From Thermoguttaceae bacterium (GTDB taxonomy: Bacteria; Planctomycetota; Planctomycetia; Pirellulales; Thermoguttaceae): a stretch of 64,000 nt of DNA. The notes below the pieces were generated by a model. It was not told where the DNA came from. It saw only the letters and a program-made list of their open reading frames with translations, and did not search any database. The position numbers and the translations under genes were made by a program. The DNA lies in NCBI GenBank assembly GCA_051651625.1, contig JBOFSQ010000111.1:229-64228 (forward strand), read 5' to 3'. Position 1 is the stretch's first letter, and each line of letters starts with the position of its first letter. Positions 1 through 8,940 of this stretch are shown piece after piece.

Positions 1-2375
1 TCGCACTCGTCGAAGAGTGGCGGTTAACGCTTGCAAAAAACATCGCCAAACAAAATCCGTCGCTCGATTCGCACCTTCTCAATGTTGCCGTTCAGCGAAT
101 CGTTGACCGCATTCTATTTTTGCGAATCGCCGAAGACAGACGCATCGAAGAATACGAAGCTCTTCTCGCCGTCGCGCGAAAGAGCGACATTTACAGCGGT
201 TTGCAGCGTCTCTTCGGTTTTGCCGATGAAAAATACAACGCTGGACTCTTCAAGCACGAAGCGTGGCTGGAAAAAATCCGCATCGACGACAAAGTTCTCA
301 AGCCAATTATTGCGGGGCTTTATTATCCTGAAAGTCCGTATGAGTTTTCGGTCTTGCCGATAGAGATTCTCGGCAGCATATACGAACGCTTCCTCGGCAA
401 GACGATTGTGTTGTCGCCGAGTCACGTTGCGAAAGTCGAGGAGAAGCCGGAAGTTCGCAAGGCGGGCGGAGTTTATTACACGCCGCAATACATCGTCGAT
501 TACATCATCGCCGAAACGGTGGGGGAAAAGTTCGACGCGAATCGCAGCGTCACCGTACTCGATCCAGCGTGTGGCAGTGGGAGTTTTCTCGTCGGCGCGT
601 ACACGTTTCTTTTGAACTCGCATCTCGCGTTTTACACCAACGAAAAGAATCTCAAAAAGTCGCTCAAAAGTGGACTCATTTACGAATCGCGTCAAGAAAC
701 GTATCTGCTTTCGATTGAAGAAAAGCAGCGGATTTTGCTCGCGTCGATTTTCGGCGTAGACATCGACCCGATTGCAGTAGAAGTGACGAAGTTGTCGCTC
801 TACTTGAAACTGCTAGAAAACGAGACCGACGAGTCGGCGGGACTACTGCTGCGGCATTCAACCTTGAAAATGTTGCCGAATCTCGACGCCAACATCCGCT
901 GCGGCAACTCTTTAATCGGCAGCGACTTTTATCGCGACAAAGAAATGCCGCTCTTCGGCGACAACGAAATCCGCCGCATCAACGCCTTCGATTGGCACAA
1001 AGAGTTCCCAGCGATTTTCAAGAGCGGCGGATTCGACTGCGTTATTGGCAATCCGCCGTATGTGCGGCAAGAGACGCTGGATAATGCGACGAAGGAGTAT
1101 TTTCAAACGCATTATTCTGTCTACCACGGCGCGGCGGATTTGTATGCGTATTTCATCGAAAAAGGAATCGGACTTTTGAAGCCGAATGGCAAGTATGGAA
1201 TCATCGTCGCGAACAAATGGCTGCGTGCAAATTATGGCGAACCACTACGAAAGTGGCTGAAAAAATGGAACCTGCTTGAGATCGTTGACTTTGGTGATTT
1301 GCCCGTTTTCGGCAAAGTGACGGCGTATCCGTTGGTTTTCCGCGTGGAGAAAGCGGTTGCCAGCGGAAACAAACTCATCGCATCGCAGGTGCAAAGTTTG
1401 GACTTTGCAAAACTTGCCGAGCACATCGAAGACAAACGCCAACTAATAGACACCGCAACGCTGGACGATTCCGGCTGGCAACTCCGCGACGAACGCGAAA
1501 AGAAGTTGTTCGACAAACTAATCGCGGTCGGCGTTTCGTTGAAAGAATACGTCGGCGGGAAAGTTTATTATGGTATCAAAACCGGTTTGAACGAAGCGTT
1601 TGTGATTGATGCGGCGACGCGCAAGCGACTTATCAAAGAAGATAAACGAAGCGAGGAGATTATCAAACCGTTTCTTGCGGGACGCGACATCAAACGCTAT
1701 GCGCCACTGGAGACGGAGAAGTTTTTGATATTGTTTCCGAAAGGGTTTACGAATGAACATGGCAACAAACCACGAAGCGGTTGGAACTGGCTCTGTGAGA
1801 ATTACTCTGCGATTGCGAATCACCTTGAACCGTTCAAAAAAAGAGGACAGGTACGTCAAGACCAAGGCGATTATTGGTGGGAACTCCGCGCGTGCGATTA
1901 CTACGGCAGTTTTGAACAACCGAAAATCGTGTTCCCTGACATTGCGCTTCGGATGCAGGCGACGTATGACGTTGGCGACATGTACTCGGTTAACACGTCG
2001 TACATCATTCCGCAGGACGACAAATATCTTTTGGCGTTGCTAAACTCGGCGATTGTTCAGTTTGTTTTCGTCAACATCACGTCGCAAATTCGCGGCGGAT
2101 ATTCGCGGTTTTTGCGGCAGTACGTTGAGCGTCTACCGATTTATCGCATCGACGAAAACAGCAAACGCGACCGCGCACACCGCGACAAACTTGTCTCACT
2201 GGTAGAACAGATGCTTTCGGCGCAGGAGAAACTTCTCGCCGCGATTTCCGACACCGACCGCAAAACGCACACACAACGTATCGAAATCCTCGACCAACAA
2301 ATCGACGCGATTGTGTACGAACTCTATGAGCTGACAGATGAGGAAATTCGGATTGTGGAAGGTGTAGAGTTATGA
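1..2375 (+). CDS. Type IIG / Eco57I-family N6-adenine DNA methyltransferase (restriction-modification enzyme), 5' end outside window
   Basis: Frame 3 is open from nt 3 with no stop before the TTG at 120, so the gene is cut by the window edge. Motif I DPACGSGSFLVGAY, motif IV CVIGNPPYVRQE, TaqI-like C-terminal specificity signature GDYWWELRACDYY. Upstream LFLRIAEDR segment is typical of type IIG/PglX-like enzymes. Confidence 0.85.
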   Translation, partial: ALVEEWRLTLAKNIAKQNPSLDSHLLNVAVQRIVDRILFLRIAEDRRIEEYEALLAVARKSDIYSGLQRLFGFADEKYNAGLFKHEAWLEKIRIDDKVLKPIIAGLYYPESPYEFSVLPIEILGSIYERFLGKTIVLSPSHVAKVEEKPEVRKAGGVYYTPQYIVDYIIAETVGEKFDANRSVTVLDPACGSGSFLVGAYTFLLNSHLAFYTNEKNLKKSLKSGLIYESRQETYLLSIEEKQRILLASIFGVDIDPIAVEVTKLSLYLKLLENETDESAGLLLRHSTLKMLPNLDANIRCGNSLIGSDFYRDKEMPLFGDNEIRRINAFDWHKEFPAIFKSGGFDCVIGNPPYVRQETLDNATKEYFQTHYSVYHGAADLYAYFIEKGIGLLKPNGKYGIIVANKWLRANYGEPLRKWLKKWNLLEIVDFGDLPVFGKVTAYPLVFRVEKAVASGNKLIASQVQSLDFAKLAEHIEDKRQLIDTATLDDSGWQLRDEREKKLFDKLIAVGVSLKEYVGGKVYYGIKTGLNEAFVIDAATRKRLIKEDKRSEEIIKPFLAGRDIKRYAPLETEKFLILFPKGFTNEHGNKPRSGWNWLCENYSAIANHLEPFKKRGQVRQDQGDYWWELRACDYYGSFEQPKIVFPDIALRMQATYDVGDMYSVNTSYIIPQDDKYLLALLNSAIVQFVFVNITSQIRGGYSRFLRQYVERLPIYRIDENSKRDRAHRDKLVSLVEQMLSAQEKLLAAISDTDRKTHTQRIEILDQQIDAIVYELYELTDEEIRIVEGVEL

Positions 2376-3028
2376 GCAATACAAAGAAAAGAAAACCAAG
2401 CAATGCTTACATGAAATTTGAAAGCGTAATAAAACGGAGTCTTGGCATGATCGCCACTTGCGAACTCGTCGAAAATTTACTTACTCATTCAGAAGGAAAC
2501 CAACAAAATCGTAATGACCACTCCGATATGATACGCGCCGCAGTTGTATTAGCTATCGCTGCACTGGATTCATATTTTACCAATGTTTTTTCGGAACACT
2601 TGATCACATACATAAAACATTATGGTCCCACAGAAAAGATGGTACACATTCTCAAAGAAGCAGGAGTTGGCACGAAATGCGCCTTGGAGTTGTTGACTAT
2701 GGAAAGACCATATCGAAGAATTCGCTCTATCGTCGTAAAACACTTGGCAAGACAAGTCATGCAGAGAACGGAAGCAATAAACAAACTTTTCGAGGCGTAT
2801 GGTTTCAAAGATTTTTGCGCAGACATCCAAAAAGCAACTCGTCGCAAACAACTCATATCGTCAATAAAAAAGATCATCTCGCGGCGGCATAAAATAGTCC
2901 ATGAAGGTGACATGAATTCCCACGGAAAACTTCAGCCGATCAGTGTTAGCGACACCAAAAAACGGATTCTTGCCATAATAAAGTTTGTGTCTAAAGCCGA
3001 TGAACTCATCACATTGAAAGTGGGGTAA
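2372..3028 (+). CDS. HEPN-domain protein (RiboL-PSP / MAE_28990-like type), putative RNase
   Basis: 218-aa ORF whose ATG overlaps the methyltransferase stop (ATGA at 2372-2375). C-terminal Rx4H motif in KKIISRRHKIVHEGD. Predicted all-helical and AT-rich. Confidence 0.55.
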   Translation: MSNTKKRKPSNAYMKFESVIKRSLGMIATCELVENLLTHSEGNQQNRNDHSDMIRAAVVLAIAALDSYFTNVFSEHLITYIKHYGPTEKMVHILKEAGVGTKCALELLTMERPYRRIRSIVVKHLARQVMQRTEAINKLFEAYGFKDFCADIQKATRRKQLISSIKKIISRRHKIVHEGDMNSHGKLQPISVSDTKKRILAIIKFVSKADELITLKVG

Positions 3029-3031
3029 ACA

Positions 3032-3970
3032 ATGACGAATGTAGAGCATGACAACAAGACAGGTCTGACCATCAAAATAAATCCTATCAGCAAAGTTTCA
3101 GATGATGACGAAACACTGGTGGACGCGAAGACAGTGGGCAAAGTTCTTTTGGCTCTGCCCGAAATGATGAAAGAATTTCATTCAAAAAATACGGCTAGCG
3201 AACAGTTACTCGTTAAAGCCAGACCGTTTGCGAAGGGGAGCTTTGAAATCTCTTTAGAGCTAATTTTGTTTGGATTCGGAGCAATGCCACTCTTGCTGTC
3301 AAATGCGGATTATATCCAGCAGACGATCAAAGAAATACTTGCACGATTCAAAGAGTTTATAGAGATCAAAATAAAACTAGCTGGAGAGGCGGTGCAAGTG
3401 AAAGGAGACAACAATATCATCATAAATAACAGTACGATTAATCTTGATGACAAAGTTATCAACGTGATCAATTCTGATAACCATGCCGAATCACTATTTC
3501 GTGATGCGATCAATGAGCTTGCACAAGATAGCGAAGTGGAATCTCTTGATTTTCAAGTAGGATCAGAGAAGGAAACAATCGCATCAATCAAGTCGTCCCA
3601 ATTCAAGTATTTTACGTCAAGTACACGGCTTGTTTCGGAAACTATACAAGAGAAGAAACGGGTAACGAATGAAAGGACAAGATTGAAACTTAAGCAACCA
3701 GACCTTGCTGGCACATCGAAATGGAATGTATATTACGACTCGAAAACCATCGCAGTAAAAGTGAAAGACGATGATTTTATTGCAATGGTCAAACAAAACA
3801 CAGAGCGGTTTGGAGCAGGCGATGAACTAGATGTTGATTTTGAAACGACAGAGATTTTCGACACTAAAATCGGGGATTTCAGGGTGCAAGGATATGCGAT
3901 TACAAAAGTCCATCAACACCTTGAAAATAAACAAGAACACATGACTTTTTTTGATGAGGCACCACGTTAA
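3032..3970 (+). CDS. Hypothetical protein, 312 aa, no recognisable domain
   Basis: ORF starts 3 nt after the HEPN TAA. Long uninterrupted ORF in an AT-rich stretch where random stops would be frequent. One hydrophobic segment, LELILFGFGAMPLLL. Confidence 0.6.
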   Translation: MTNVEHDNKTGLTIKINPISKVSDDDETLVDAKTVGKVLLALPEMMKEFHSKNTASEQLLVKARPFAKGSFEISLELILFGFGAMPLLLSNADYIQQTIKEILARFKEFIEIKIKLAGEAVQVKGDNNIIINNSTINLDDKVINVINSDNHAESLFRDAINELAQDSEVESLDFQVGSEKETIASIKSSQFKYFTSSTRLVSETIQEKKRVTNERTRLKLKQPDLAGTSKWNVYYDSKTIAVKVKDDDFIAMVKQNTERFGAGDELDVDFETTEIFDTKIGDFRVQGYAITKVHQHLENKQEHMTFFDEAPR

Positions 3971-4616: not shown

Positions 4617-4877
4617 ATGAACCGCAAACTCCATTGCCTCATCGCAGACCGAGAAAAGAACGTCGCGGAAATGGTGGCGTGGACGTGGGCGAAGACCGAC
4701 CGGCATATCGACATCATCGACTTGCAACTCGGCTGGGCTTACAAACAGTGGAACGACAATGCGATGGAAATACTTGAAGAGTTTCGTCGCCAAGTCGTGA
4801 CCGCACGCTGGATCAAAATCGAACTCGAAGACGACGCTGAAGAAAAACGCAAACCACGCCGCACGCGAAAAAAATAA
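4617..4877 (+). CDS. Hypothetical small protein (86 aa)
   Basis: ORF with a natural-looking composition and a basic C-terminus (KRKPRRTRKK). It lies in a segment bounded by 13-bp direct repeats GTGAACGCTTACA. No homology recognised. Confidence 0.3.
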   Translation: MNRKLHCLIADREKNVAEMVAWTWAKTDRHIDIIDLQLGWAYKQWNDNAMEILEEFRRQVVTARWIKIELEDDAEEKRKPRRTRKK

Positions 4878-4899
4878 ACACCAAAGCGTTCGCGGTATC

Positions 4900-5293
4900 C
4901 GTGAACGCTTACATCGCAGGCGCGAAGCTGCAACATCTCACTTGACCGCATCCCGCTGTGCATCTGGACTTGAACGAGGTCTGCGACAACCAAGTAGGCG
5001 AGGCTTTCGCGGTGATTCGAGAACGATCTGGAGGTTCGCCCGTTCGCCGTGTAGTGTTCTTCCGCGTATTCGAGAAACTGGATGATCGCGTCCTCGATTC
5101 CGAGGTCGGTCTTTGCACGAGTCGGCGGCACTTGTCTACCGTTTGCCAGATACTTGGCAATTTCTTGCTCGTACTTTTGGCGGCTTGCCTTACTTTTGTG
5201 CTTACCGAGGTAGATTGTCCGCCCACCCAGACCGACGATAGCCTGTCCAGTGGATTTGTGGAGGCGGTACGCGGGGACGTTTTGTCGCGGCAT
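4900..5293 (-). pseudogene. Tyrosine recombinase (phage-type integrase) remnant, internally deleted and 3'-truncated
   Basis: N-terminal MPRQNVPAYRLHKSTGQAIVGLGGRTIYLGKHKS...IQFLEYAEEHY is joined after only ~15 aa to box-I-like HSGMRSSEMLQLRACDV. After that the frame turns into low-complexity nonsense. No H-x-x-R or catalytic Tyr region is present. Adjacent to the tRNA 3' end. Confidence 0.7.
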
Positions 5294-5419
5294 GATATGA
5301 CCCTTCCGTGCTAGAGGAACTCGCAAAGTGTGTACTACACACTATAACGGCGTTTCCCAAGACACGCTAGGCCACCCACCCAAACTCGCAAACCCTTCTA
5401 TTTGTAGCGTTTGCGGGAC

Positions 5420-5493
5420 TGGGCGATACAGGGCTCGAACCTGTGACCTTCTGGGTGTAAACCAGACGCTCTAACCAACTGAGCTAATCGCCC
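5420..5493 (-). tRNA. tRNA-Val (anticodon TAC)
   Basis: Minus-strand read is GGGCGATTAGCTCAGTTGGTTAGAGCGTCTGGTTTACACCCAGAAGGTCACAGGTTCGAGCCCTGTATCGCCCA. It has acceptor, D, anticodon (loop TTTACAC) and T arms (GGTTCGAGCC). CCA is not encoded. Confidence 0.9.
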
Positions 5494-6685
5494 GCGTCGC
5501 ATCAAATAAACAGTCGTAGAATTCAGCGTAACTTTCCACCATCGCGGCCAACGACCGAGACTCAAGTGTCACGCTGCGACCAGCGTTCGCAAGACGAAAT
5601 CGCAACGCCTCGTCTTCATAAAGACGCAGAACCGCCTCGCCAAAAAGACGTCGCCGTGCAACTGCGTCACCGCCGCATTCGGGGATAAGTATACCCGTAT
5701 CGCCGTGATTGACAAGATCAGCGTTCCCCGAAATATCAGACGCAATCACCGCCACGCCCGCCGACATCGCCTCAAGAATCGCGTTCGACTCGCCTTCATA
5801 CGCACTCGTCGAGACAACAACATCAAACAACGGCAAAAGCAACGCAACGTCGTTCCGATGACCAATAAAGTGAACGTGGTGAAACAGTCCACGCGAATCG
5901 CGCTCACGCAACAAATCGTCGCGGAGCGGGCCATCGCCGATCACAACGAAATGAATGTCAGCATTGGCGTAGTGCGCAAGCTCCGCAATCCAAAACAGGT
6001 CGTCGAGCCGTTTCTGTTCCCAAAGTCGCGCCACAACGCCAACCAAAAACGTCTCACGCGAACGTTCACCGTGCGGCGTGATCGGAATGTACGCATCCGC
6101 CGTTTCCAGCGGACGAATGTTGAGCGAACGAGCGAGTTGTTCACGTCCGCGCTCACGTTCTTCAGACGTGATAACCGGTGGTGTTACGATGGCGTTCGGG
6201 ATGATTGTGAAACGTTCGCGTGCGATGCCGTGCGTCTCGTAAAAATCGGCGATGCCGCGACTATTCGTGACGAAGGCGTTCGTGACCGGAGCGAGTGCGC
6301 GGTCGATCTTGTGGTGCCACGCTCGTTTCCACGGATCGACGCACCGTTCTGCGGTGACAATTCGCGGGACACCACACCACGCCGCCGCCGAACGTCCGTA
6401 AGCGTTCGCTGCAAAGAGCCAAGTGTGAACGACATCTGGACGCCACGAACGAATCAAGTTCGCCAGCCGCCACCACGCGAGCGGGTCGAGTTTGGCACGC
6501 TTCCCGATGAGCGTCCACGCGACACCGCTGCGGTCGAGGTCGTCCGCGAGCGGGCCGCTCCGCGTGAGAACCGCAACGTGCGTCTCAAAGCGGTCGCGCG
6601 GAAGGTGCGACGCCAAAAGCACGAGTTGCTTTTCAGCCCCCGACCGGTCGAGCGAAGGAATGATGTGAAGGATGCGACGTGACAC
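5471..6685 (-). CDS. Glycosyltransferase family 4 (GT-B fold)
   Basis: EGESNAILEAMSAGVAVIASD (E-x7-E region) and N-terminal ILHIIPSLDRSGAEKQ. The ORF-track start at 6739 translates a family-B repeat (ALAYASRSD), so GTG at 6685 is the more likely start. The stop lies 23 nt inside the tRNA-Val gene. Confidence 0.8.
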   Translation of the reverse strand: MSRRILHIIPSLDRSGAEKQLVLLASHLPRDRFETHVAVLTRSGPLADDLDRSGVAWTLIGKRAKLDPLAWWRLANLIRSWRPDVVHTWLFAANAYGRSAAAWCGVPRIVTAERCVDPWKRAWHHKIDRALAPVTNAFVTNSRGIADFYETHGIARERFTIIPNAIVTPPVITSEERERGREQLARSLNIRPLETADAYIPITPHGERSRETFLVGVVARLWEQKRLDDLFWIAELAHYANADIHFVVIGDGPLRDDLLRERDSRGLFHHVHFIGHRNDVALLLPLFDVVVSTSAYEGESNAILEAMSAGVAVIASDISGNADLVNHGDTGILIPECGGDAVARRRLFGEAVLRLYEDEALRFRLANAGRSVTLESRSLAAMVESYAEFYDCLFDATRAISSVG

Positions 6686-6687
6686 GA

Positions 6688-6716
6688 AATCAGAGCGGGA
6701 AGCGTAAGCGAGTGCC
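6688..6716 (+). repeat. Family B repeat unit (AATCAGAGCGGGAAGCGTAAGCGAGTGCC)
   Basis: Same ~25-29-nt unit recurs at 10 loci in this window. Confidence 0.9.
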
Positions 6717-6835
6717 CAATGGCAGGCGGAGTGGAGCAATGACCTGCCCTACGGTTGACGAGGCGTATTCTACCAACAAACTCGCAACGTGCGTAGGGGC
6801 GATTCACGAATCGCCAAGATGTAGCGAGTGTAATC

Positions 6836-6860: not shown

Positions 6861-6864
6861 AGAG

Positions 6865-6936
6865 CAGTGTGGCGTGTTCAAGCAGTGTGGCGTGTTCAAG
6901 CAGTGTGGCGTGTTCAAGCAGTGTGGCGTGTTCAAT
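6865..6936. repeat. 18-bp tandem repeat x4 (CAGTGTGGCGTGTTCAAG)
   Basis: Four head-to-tail copies. The last copy ends ...TTCAAT. Confidence 0.95.
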
Positions 6937-7065: not shown

Positions 7066-8940
7066 CTACGTTGCGTTTTCCGCAGGTTTTCCGTCTTCGC
7101 CGAGTACGACGTCGGCGGTTGCGGTCTTCGATTTGGCGACGGTGATGAGCGACGTGTGAATCGCTTCGCGGTCGCCCTTCGTCAGTTTTGCCACCGCCGT
7201 TGCGACCTCGCCAAGATAACGCAAGAAAATACTGCGACGCTCTCCTTCTTGGCGAACACGGTCACGCCGGTTGAGATAGATGCCAAGTTTGCGACCAACC
7301 GCTTGCAGCGCGAGTCGCAGTTCCTTCTGGATTTCCGGGTACGCCGCTATCGCCTCCTTCGACTCGCTCGTGAACGGCACCCAAACACTTGCGAGGTGAA
7401 CCATCACCGTCACCGGCCCGCGCGGAAACTGGTTGCGCGACTGCGTGAGTCCATACGAACGCCAATTCATCCCCGCCACCGTTTGCGTCGTGAGACACGC
7501 ACCGGGCTGAAACTGTAACGGTACGCGATTCGCGTAACGATACAGCGACATTGATTGACCTTCACTCAAGTTGAGCGACTGGAGAGTCTCGTGCAAATGC
7601 TTCGTCTCTTGCGGCGACATGTTTTTCGGCGAGAGACGCGGACGCAACTTCGCCGCACGAATCAGTTTGTCGGCGGCGTCGTTACCGATTCCGTCGAACG
7701 TTGCGGTAAGGAATTGCCGCATCGTTCGCGCGTCGCTTTCGGCGAGAAGTTCTTCGAGCGACTCGCGCGAGATTTTGTGCGTCGCCGGTGCGCCGCCGTA
7801 AGAGAGCGCGACTTCGATCTGAAACGGATTGCCGCGATAGACCGCCGGTGGCCGCGTCACCGCCGCATAAAACTCGCCGGGGACGACGTGGTGAAGCCCT
7901 TTGAGAAGATTCTCTTCGCCGATTGGTGAGATGCAATCTGTTGACGGCGCGGGGATGCGGGCCTCTTGAATTACCGCGTAGAGTCGCTCGACGCCAGTCC
8001 GGTCGATTTTGTGCGGATGGTGACGCACGCCGAGATTCGATTGTTCACAAATCGTTTTTGCAAGCGATGAGTTAACACGCGAAAACGACTCGACCAAAAA
8101 CTTTGCAAGCGTTGGCTCGTGCGTCTCGTGCAACATTTGGAGGAGACGACCGAGTTCGACGCCGTAAGGGTGCGGCTTGATCTCACGCGGCTCGCGCGGC
8201 AGTTCTTGCGACGACGCGGCGTATTCGTGCGACTCGCCGTCGGGGTCGGTGTAGTGGATAGTGATGTGCGGGTTGGCTATCGCTGTCTGCTCCAAGTATT
8301 CATCGACGCTGCCGCGTCCGCGCTGATATTTCGCTTCGAGTTCGATAGTGACGCGAGTTCCGTGTGCGACTTCGACCCACTCGATCTCTTGCTTTGTTAT
8401 CATCGCGCGACCGGCGTCGTTCGGCGGAATGTCTTCGCCTTCACCGTCGCCGTTGAGGATGTCGGGCGAGTTTGTCTTGGTGTTAATGCGGATGACGTAG
8501 TAATGCGCCGGTTTGTTCTTCGATATTTTCGAGACAATCTTGACCGGCTTTCCGGTCGTGAGAAGTCCGTACATCCCCGCCGCGCTGATGCCGATCCCTT
8601 GTTGCCCGCGACTCATTCGCAGGCGGTGAAACTTCGAGCCGTAGAGCAGCTTTCCGAAGATGAGCGGAATCTGTTTCTTGACGATTCCGGGGCCGTTGTC
8701 TTGGACGCCGACCTTGAAACGACTCGACCCCATCGACTCGATGTGAACCCAGATTTCCGGCAAGATTCCAGCTTCTTCGCACGCATCAAGAGCGTTGTCT
8801 ACCGCTTCTTTGACGGTAGTCAGTAACGCTTTACGCGGGTTGTCAAAACCGAGCAGGTGGCGATTTTTGGCAAAGAACTCGCTCACGGAAATCTCTTTTT
8901 GACCGCGAGCCATTTCTTCGGCAGACGAACGTCGTGACAT
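7066..8940 (-). CDS. top6B: DNA topoisomerase VI subunit B (GHKL ATPase)
   Basis: N-terminal ISVSEFFAKNRHLLGFDNPRKALLTTVKEAVDNALDA is the Top6B Bergerat-fold signature. The 624-aa length fits the long (Methanosarcina-type) form. Confidence 0.8.
   Translation of the reverse strand: MSRRSSAEEMARGQKEISVSEFFAKNRHLLGFDNPRKALLTTVKEAVDNALDACEEAGILPEIWVHIESMGSSRFKVGVQDNGPGIVKKQIPLIFGKLLYGSKFHRLRMSRGQQGIGISAAGMYGLLTTGKPVKIVSKISKNKPAHYYVIRINTKTNSPDILNGDGEGEDIPPNDAGRAMITKQEIEWVEVAHGTRVTIELEAKYQRGRGSVDEYLEQTAIANPHITIHYTDPDGESHEYAASSQELPREPREIKPHPYGVELGRLLQMLHETHEPTLAKFLVESFSRVNSSLAKTICEQSNLGVRHHPHKIDRTGVERLYAVIQEARIPAPSTDCISPIGEENLLKGLHHVVPGEFYAAVTRPPAVYRGNPFQIEVALSYGGAPATHKISRESLEELLAESDARTMRQFLTATFDGIGNDAADKLIRAAKLRPRLSPKNMSPQETKHLHETLQSLNLSEGQSMSLYRYANRVPLQFQPGACLTTQTVAGMNWRSYGLTQSRNQFPRGPVTVMVHLASVWVPFTSESKEAIAAYPEIQKELRLALQAVGRKLGIYLNRRDRVRQEGERRSIFLRYLGEVATAVAKLTKGDREAIHTSLITVAKSKTATADVVLGEDGKPAENAT

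Follow-up and report, generated by a model that had tools for sequence, protein, structure and literature searches.

A HEPN and PDC-S42-family gene pair recurring beside restriction-modification genes: a candidate mobile back-up to restriction

To our knowledge, few HEPN RNases linked to restriction-modification (RM) systems have been worked out beyond PrrC, the gene for which is embedded in or attached to the type Ic EcoprrI operon. It was proposed in general terms in 2013 that such an RNase serves as a back-up when restriction fails, and the same paper describes the RiboL-PSP-HEPN family (PF18735) as bacterial, its recorded contexts including members fused to an endoRNase L-PSP domain and members in an operon with ParB (Anantharaman et al. 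2013, PMC3710099). More recently, the HEPN RNase of DARNA (PD-T7-3) has been described as switched on by single-stranded DNA that a phage SSB, a protein binding such DNA, presents (bioRxiv 10.64898/2026.02.22.705581). Furthermore, the PDC systems comprise 145 candidates nominated for being embedded in BREX, DISARM and type I RM loci ('guilt-by-embedding'; Payne et al., bioRxiv 10.1101/2024.01.29.577857). Here we describe a pair of genes, one for a 218-aa HEPN protein and one for a 312-aa protein of the PDC-S42 family, that follows a type IIG RM gene in a Thermoguttaceae bacterium (assembly GCA_051651625.1, contig JBOFSQ010000111.1, positions 229 to 64,228 of the forward strand). This whole stretch of 64,000 nt is referred to as the window.

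The theme of an RM-linked HEPN module is known, and it is the pairing of HEPN with PDC-S42 that is the new part. The two genes form a conserved, monophyletic and co-diverging unit that is found beside several types of RM system or beside none. We give a slightly better than even chance to the reading that the pair is a mobile, abortive-infection-type back-up to restriction, in which the HEPN protein would be the effector and the PDC-S42-like protein its sensor or regulator. An earlier note, made from the letters and open reading frames (ORFs) of the window, had put forward the tightly linked genes as a candidate undescribed RM-linked defence module. The features of the locus are as follows.

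1..2375, + strand: C-terminal ~790 aa of a predicted type IIG RM enzyme (methyltransferase and target-recognition parts), from profile matches
2372..2375, + strand: ATGA start/stop overlap of the type IIG and HEPN genes, read from the sequence
2372..3028, + strand: 218-aa RiboL-PSP-type HEPN protein, predicted RNase effector, from PF18735
2885..2902, + strand: codons for R172-H-K-I-V-H177, the Rx4H signature of the HEPN protein, from the alignment
3029..3031, + strand: 3-nt spacer ACA from the HEPN stop to the partner start, read from the sequence
3032..3970, + strand: 312-aa LAPAL_fam / PHROG 3243 / PADLOC PDC-S42 protein, predicted sensor or regulator, from profile matches
3656..3922, + strand: putative C-terminal OB-like beta-barrel of the 312-aa protein, residues ~209-297, from the AlphaFold model and weak Foldseek matches

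The gene junctions are exactly as the earlier note had read them. The HEPN ATG at 2372-2374 overlaps the type IIG stop TGA at 2373-2375, both in the sequence and in the ORF map, and the HEPN stop TAA at 3026-3028 is followed by ACA and then by the ATG of the 312-aa ORF at 3032. At this locus the three genes do make one tight unit, with a single orientation, an overlap and a 3-nt spacing. The motif SRRHKIVHEGD that had been picked out is also present, at residues 170-180 of the HEPN protein, which places the codons of R172-x4-H177 at 2885-2902. The HEPN and 312-aa ORFs happen to share one reading frame in the window; in other loci the frames differ and the spacing ranges from -4 to +16 nt, so programmed read-through is not conserved. 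A fusion by stop-codon read-through was rejected on this ground, and none of the best 150 partner relatives is long enough to be such a fusion. The junction between the type IIG and HEPN genes varies too, being an 8-nt overlap in locus L001, and in L053 a type IIG-like C-terminus (ending …VYELYGLTEEEVRIIEK before its stop codon) stops ~45 nt upstream of the HEPN start. A promoter and terminator scan around the operon gave counts no better than those in shuffled sequence.

On its profile match, the 218-aa protein is a member of the RiboL-PSP-type HEPN family. It scores 43 bits against PF18735 (curated cut-off 28.4; E 6.2e-11) over residues 33-213 and profile positions 10-189 of 191, it matches phrog_13503 at 8e-08, and PF18735 is carried by 40 of 40 of its homologues. 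R171, R172, H177, G179 and D180 do not vary across 29 homologues of 33-75% identity, and with its Rx4H site intact the protein is a predicted RNA endonuclease. The HEPN call made by eye therefore stands, as it passes the Pfam cut-off with an invariant Rx4H. As in the family described in the accessible text of PMC3710099, the Rx4-6H motif is conserved in a bacterial protein. In contrast to members described there, the window HEPN lacks an L-PSP fusion and a ParB operon, neither domain being found by ORF map and Pfam in the protein or its neighbours, although this is a trait of some members and not a Pfam requirement. Partnership with a LAPAL/PDC-S42 protein is not among the contexts which that text gives. 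The AlphaFold model is all-alpha, with nine helices (predicted local distance difference test, pLDDT, 89.1; predicted template-modelling score, pTM, 0.85). Foldseek of this model against the PDB gave no match at E<1e-3, the only recurrent matches being weak ones to HepT toxins (6m6u, 6m6w, 5yep and 7bxo; probability 0.5-0.7, TM ~0.5, E>0.9), and a profile search of PDB sequences found nothing. No PADLOC model recognises the protein.

The 312-aa protein, which had been called unrecognisable, belongs to a family that is already listed in three collections. It scores 119.3 bits against NCBIfam NF053583 LAPAL_fam (cut-off 60; 2.1e-34), with residues 28-297 aligned to profile positions 13-291 of 292, and 8.3e-33 against phrog_3243, where PHROG 3243 is annotated as of unknown function. 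It also matches two PADLOC PDC-S42 profiles, for which PADLOC supplies no curated cut-off: PDLC05015 at 3.6e-17 (residues 30-301 on positions 20-294 of 302) and PDLC05016 at 9.6e-07. Partners from other loci match PDLC05015 at 6e-18 to 3e-41. On these profile matches, three separately curated labels, namely the PADLOC candidate, the PHROG and the NCBIfam 'LAPAL motif-containing putative phage structural protein', are one protein family. In the PADLOC check that had been suggested beforehand, the type IIG and PDC-S42 profiles were matched and the HEPN protein was unrecognised. By exhaustive HMMER search the family comprises 1,040 representative clusters at E<=1e-3, a number that falls to 344 at E<=1e-10, and nearly all are 285-310 aa long; a word-indexed search with an 88-sequence profile gave only 4 proteins. 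The 'LAPAL' site itself reads DLAPSLLAL in phage members and VLLALPEMM at the aligned place in the window protein, within whose own clade only L39, A41 and L42 recur. There is no Pfam family for the protein and no nucleotidyltransferase domain in it, the sole NARF match being sub-threshold (0.066; 14 bits against 25), nor was a DNA-binding or helix-turn-helix (HTH) domain detected with Pfam or NCBIfam.

Structural modelling of the 312-aa protein yielded a confident AlphaFold model (pLDDT 89.8) with an N-terminal alpha/beta part, a middle alpha/beta part and a C-terminal barrel. The element order of the barrel, beta-beta-beta-alpha-beta-beta, is the strand-helix order of the OB fold, and the barrel holds most of the invariant residues of the family (W231, D246, F249, F260, G263, D264 and V293). 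As modelled, the protein appears to consist of three domains, with no catalytic motif and an OB-like barrel at its end, and the OB-like domain could bind nucleic acid. No PDB relative was found by sequence, nor by fold at E<1e-3 with Foldseek. Weak matches of the barrel are to the Rim1 SSB (probability 0.96, TM 0.51-0.54), the eIF5A C-terminal domain and DNA-ligase OB domains, further weak PDB fold matches are to ferredoxin-like dimerisation domains, and the significant matches in BFVD, a viral structure library, are uncharacterised phage proteins. In the modelling and profile checks proposed in the earlier note, the HEPN protein was placed in PF18735, the 312-aa protein was placed in an NCBIfam family and confidently modelled, and neither gave a significant PDB match. 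The beta-rich C-terminal half described by eye is borne out by the model. The 'hydrophobic segment' (about residues 73-90) is not consistently hydrophobic among homologues and is modelled as a beta strand and loop, and a conserved membrane helix was therefore rejected.

The pairing was examined in 44 non-identical HEPN loci gathered from HEPN homologues, a genome scan and a metagenome scan, of which 25 carry the pair, 17 have a solo HEPN and 2 lie at contig ends. A partner homologue stands directly downstream of HEPN in the paired loci, on the same strand and at the spacing given above, so the neighbourhood conservation that the earlier note had proposed to test is present. Paired HEPNs form one clade in a neighbour-joining tree, with every solo HEPN outside it (L069 and L071, auto-labelled solo merely through ORF overlap, are counted within the paired clade), and the HEPN-paired partners form one clade in the partner tree, with viral and other solo copies outside. 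Pairwise identities of the two proteins are closely correlated across 18 full-length pairs (r = 0.89, Mantel p about 2e-4). From the partner side, the representatives that reach E<=1e-30 with the close profile have a HEPN mate (P0045 and P0063), and those that score 1e-23 or weaker stand alone (P0083, P0090, P0127, P0190 and P0204). Wherever the flanks allowed testing, no member of the paired clade was without its mate. The hosts are mostly Planctomycetota (Thermoguttaceae in the window, Pirellulaceae and Planctomycetaceae), and the other sources are a Bipolaricaulota metagenome-assembled genome and termite-gut and sediment metagenomes.

These data also bear on the idea that the two are independent single-gene defence or accessory genes which travel together with no functional coupling, each acting alone, as solo relatives of the partner must and as the solo sister clade of the HEPN does. 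Such an arrangement would suit the fact that both families are mostly or often solo and that PADLOC treats PDC-S42 as a single-gene system. However, the association has a single origin, the orientation and the -4 to +16 nt spacing have been strictly preserved across a sequence divergence of 20-99%, the two trees agree and the mate is present in each testable member of the clade, and we regard independent travel as unlikely. A physical or regulatory coupling of the HEPN protein and its partner is predicted.

Several observations on individual loci may be recorded here. Among the solo HEPNs, alternative partners were sought and rejected, as the downstream ORFs are mostly spurious high-G+C frames without Pfam or PADLOC match or mutual similarity. 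In L015 (3626-9252) a solo-clade HEPN lies between same-strand ORFs of 1,264 aa upstream and 365 aa downstream, neither of which has a Pfam or PADLOC match, an arrangement that may belong to another HEPN-containing system. On three termite-gut contigs (L001 5195-6158, L002 5611-6574 and L003 1652-2615) the partner gene is broken into pieces of 277 + 54 aa, through frameshift or assembly error, with both the HEPN gene and the type IIG gene intact there. The single plasmid match is a PDC-S42-family gene on Cupriavidus necator N-1 plasmid pBB1 (NC_015727.1 ~688.4-690.7 kb; L010 7404-9714), at 2.9e-41 against PDLC05015; its 5' end is cut by an IS3-type insertion (HTH_Tnp_1 and rve ORFs), and being N-terminally truncated it is uninformative on pairing. 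Megablast of L045 against E. coli genomes gave no match.

The gene upstream of the pair in the window is, on its profile matches, a type IIG RM gene, of which the part for the C-terminal ~790 aa is present. This assignment follows from Pfam matches to Eco57I (5.6e-49), TaqI_C (1.3e-19), N6_Mtase and MmeI_Mtase, together with a match to PADLOC REase_MTase_IIG (PDLC03604, 1.7e-128) that starts at position 245 and ends at 1004 of 1011. The Eco57I and TaqI_C matches put a gamma-class N6-adenine methyltransferase domain and a TaqI_C-type specificity domain on one polypeptide. The frame is open from base 3 of the window and runs off both the window and the 64,291-bp contig, and the N-terminal ~245 profile positions, the nuclease part, lie past that end. 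Elsewhere the cassette occurs in the following contexts.

Window, L001-L003 and L053: cassette directly after a type IIG enzyme
L006/L007: cassette preceded by hsdR-hsdM-hsdS and followed by Mrr, on an island that also holds SIR2 and PLD genes
L011, L014 and L062: cassette before an N6_N4 (Mod-like) methylase, with a ResIII protein next in L011 and L062
L073: cassette before a PLD-SNF2 nuclease-helicase and a type ISP-like methylase
L069: pair almost identical to that of L073, near an MmeI-family enzyme
L012: SNF2 helicase gene overlapping the HEPN start
L004, L008, L021, L060 and L091: no RM gene in the available flanks

The cassette therefore adjoins at least five kinds of RM system. The placing of HEPN beside RM in the earlier note is supported by this recurrence next to type I, type IIG, type III-like, MmeI-like and PLD-SNF2 plus type ISP-like systems, whereas the three-gene arrangement proposed there as the unit gives way to a two-gene cassette, carried by several RM types or by none. 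Between the window and L001, identity is 24% for the type IIG proteins, 69% for HEPN and 54% for the partner. In addition, nucleotide similarity between the window and L053, its closest relative, begins 15 nt past the HEPN ATG and stops inside the partner gene.

Base composition shows a matching boundary. The pair has 40.0% G+C (40.5% in the HEPN gene and 39.7% in the 312-aa gene), with a third-codon-position G+C (GC3) of 0.40-0.42, against 49.8% and a GC3 of 0.60 for the type IIG gene and 54.6% for the whole window. It is the G+C minimum among all 1,599-nt windows of the 64 kb (mean 0.547, standard deviation 0.036), ~4 standard deviations low, and G+C drops at about 2300-2400 and recovers at about 4100, coinciding with the ends of the pair. 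The earlier hand counts of 24/60, 17/60 and 36/60 are exact on recount, and the impression that the pair is foreign even relative to the methyltransferase agrees with these figures. Moreover, the pair lies 4-14 G+C points under its own contig in 12 of 12 loci checked. Because of the unequal identities, the limits of the similarity to L053 and this consistently low G+C, the sequence evidence favours a mobile unit docking next to RM genes over a dedicated subunit of one. Near-identical pairs at L069 (452-1998) and L073 (1228-2774), from related metagenomes, stand beside different RM systems, which suggests recent shuffling of the cassette or of the RM genes.

The same evidence can be set against the view that the pair serves the type IIG enzyme as dedicated accessory subunits, for instance to modulate how it cleaves or its specificity. 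That view could draw on the ATGA overlap in the window and on the closest relatives (L001-3 and L053), which likewise follow a type IIG gene, but the cassette also accompanies unrelated RM types or none, the type IIG partners are just 24% identical and there is a 10-point G+C difference across the junction. We consider it very unlikely.

Relatives of the partner also occur alone in phages. Retrieved with a Firmicute-like sub-alignment, family members were found on 22 IMG/VR contigs, in none of which (0/22) a RiboL-PSP HEPN lies beside them, and the neighbours with an assignable name are either an integrase, a regulator of repressor type or a late regulator right before terminase. Two copies are in cultured phages. 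ORF19 of Lactobacillus phage A2 (NP_680501.1; L089 4001-4903) lies between endolysin and int with its own annotated terminator, and ORF27 of Listeria phage vB_LmoS_188 (YP_009204870.1; L090 3986-4873) has a 'putative superinfection immunity protein' on one side and the integrase on the other; they score 3e-87 and 7.5e-93, respectively, against phrog_3243. Tblastn of the 312-aa protein and of P0117 against cultured phages gave no match. The PHROG 3243 phage members resemble the 312-aa protein in family, length and architecture, but they are solo genes of the lysogeny/moron region, have no HEPN and fall outside the HEPN-paired clade. Prophage-borne genes for defence and exclusion are usually located at lysogeny-module and moron positions.

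The name given by NCBIfam invites the explanation that the 312-aa gene is a prophage remnant for a structural protein and that its HEPN and RM neighbourhood is fortuitous. PHROG membership and the relatives on viral contigs and in cultured phages would be in keeping with this. Judged by gene position and not by proteomics, none of the phage or viral loci examined has the family gene in a head or tail module; the copies have as neighbour a gene for an integrase, a repressor, immunity or a late regulator, or else are placed with lysis genes on one side and int on the other. These lysogeny-module and moron positions, as opposed to structural-module ones, suggest that the name 'putative phage structural protein' is misleading. 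PHROG 3243 itself is annotated 'unknown function', no phage genes surround the window copy and the HEPN pairing is conserved in non-phage contexts, and we find a structural remnant scarcely credible.

Under the reading that we favour, the HEPN protein would be the effector, an RNA endonuclease that cleaves cellular and/or phage RNA, and the PDC-S42-like protein would sense infection and/or hold the RNase in check. The cassette is docked by its ATGA overlap on the 3' end of the type IIG gene, so that all three genes would be expressed together, and it would act as a second, abortive-infection-type line of defence behind restriction, in functional analogy to PrrC-EcoprrI or RnlA-RnlB. An RNase activity of the HEPN protein is predicted from its conserved site, and an anti-phage function of the cassette is suggested by its context.

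How this proposal compares with described systems is of value in judging it. Like PrrC, the window HEPN is encoded beside an RM gene; however, PrrC has its own ABC-ATPase domain and a type Ic host, while the window HEPN consists of nothing but a 218-aa domain, its partner being a separate and unrelated protein, and has several RM hosts, and PADLOC gave no PrrC match for it. The anti-phage toxin-antitoxin pairs RnlA-RnlB and LsoA-LsoB share the tight operon in which a HEPN gene precedes a partner gene, and a plausible inhibitory role for that partner, but neither PADLOC nor Pfam gave an Rnl or Lso match for the pair and the window partner is three times the size of RnlB, with a predicted OB-like domain. 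HepT-MntA (type VII toxin-antitoxin) differs in that the window partner has no MNT nucleotidyltransferase domain. DARNA couples a HEPN effector to a non-catalytic module that reads a nucleic-acid cue, which provides a precedent for the mechanism proposed for the OB-like partner, although DARNA is a single polypeptide whose C-terminal domain is all-helical, and its sequence is unrelated (PADLOC gave no match for the window HEPN). Finally, the 312-aa protein is a near end-to-end match to PDC-S42, and its relatives are embedded in RM loci (L006/L007, where hsdR-hsdM-hsdS, the pair and Mrr follow one another), whereas PDC-S42 was defined as a single-gene candidate and the window gene is the second member of a fixed HEPN pair.

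The likeness to RnlA-RnlB and LsoA-LsoB is also what a plain toxin-antitoxin addiction module would show, in which HEPN is the toxin, the 312-aa protein a proteic antitoxin that stabilises the RM gene or island, and any phage effect incidental. The order of HEPN then inhibitor and the tight coupling are familiar from those pairs, the two proteins co-diverge, and the cassette also stands among housekeeping genes without RM (L008 and L091). RnlAB is treated in PMC8266594. On the other hand, a partner of ~300 aa with three domains is far above typical antitoxin size and no DNA-binding or HTH domain was detected in it. Many solo partners occur in phage lysogeny modules that have no toxin, solo HEPNs without antitoxin exist and RM adjacency takes at least five architectures. 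An addiction module is unlikely on this balance.

Several points weigh against the back-up reading. In approximately 40% of the contexts whose flanks are usable, no RM gene is seen beside the cassette, L008 and L091 being among them, and with the type IIG gene incomplete at the contig end, an active RM partner in the window is putative. Solo relatives exist for both proteins (the 17 HEPN loci and most of the partner family), so that obligate partnership is not a family trait. The OB-like assignment is built on weak fold matches, and the fold search gives no significant confirmation of the HEPN fold, being weakly supportive and not decisive. The searchable literature gave no paper naming PDC-S42, phrog_3243, NF053583 or the 'LAPAL motif', and hence none describing a HEPN-PDC-S42 pairing was found. 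Outcomes that had been named in advance as damaging to the proposal did not occur: the 312-aa protein did not match a well-characterised non-defence family, the pair recurs in other genomes and the HEPN call holds in profile searches. With respect to the description of the module as 'undescribed', the HEPN pairing and RM adjacency stand, while one half of it, through its membership of NF053583, PHROG 3243 and PDC-S42, is already a listed candidate, and defence is read from context.

A broader possibility, which we offer tentatively and hold to be doubtful, is that the partner family, with at least 1,000 clusters at 50% identity and without a solved relative, is a widespread and uncharacterised class of proteins for sensing infection or for immunity, whose OB-like domain would read nucleic acid. 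It would act alone in the lysogeny modules of temperate phages such as A2 and vB_LmoS_188 and be wired to HEPN in one bacterial clade. If this were true, the cassette would represent a new two-component abortive-infection system able to plug into many types of RM system. The cassette is a compact and clearly bounded example of an RM-linked HEPN, with an intact catalytic motif and a partner without solved relative; it is widespread in environmental bacteria and could offer an experimental route into a large uncharacterised family. Since family members occur in cultured, tractable temperate phages (A2 and vB_LmoS_188), the function of PDC-S42 is directly testable, even though the window itself comes from an uncultured Thermoguttaceae bacterium.

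Minor observations were also made downstream of the cassette. A tRNA-Val(TAC) gene lies at 5420-5493 (- strand), ~1.4 kb downstream, and a tRNA-linked island at this locus is suggested only by the G+C step. The adjacent 195-aa ORF at 4739-5326 (- strand) was considered as an integrase N-terminal remnant, a reading left unsupported, as the ORF is without Pfam or PHROG match and unlike three phage integrases. Further on, a perfect 18-nt tandem repeat of 4.1 copies (AGCAGTGTGGCGTGTTCA) occupies window positions 6863-6935. It is intergenic, between an ORF at 5471-6739 (- strand) that by eye is glycosyltransferase-like and a 624-aa ORF at 7066-8940 (- strand) that, again by eye, is topoisomerase VI subunit B-like.

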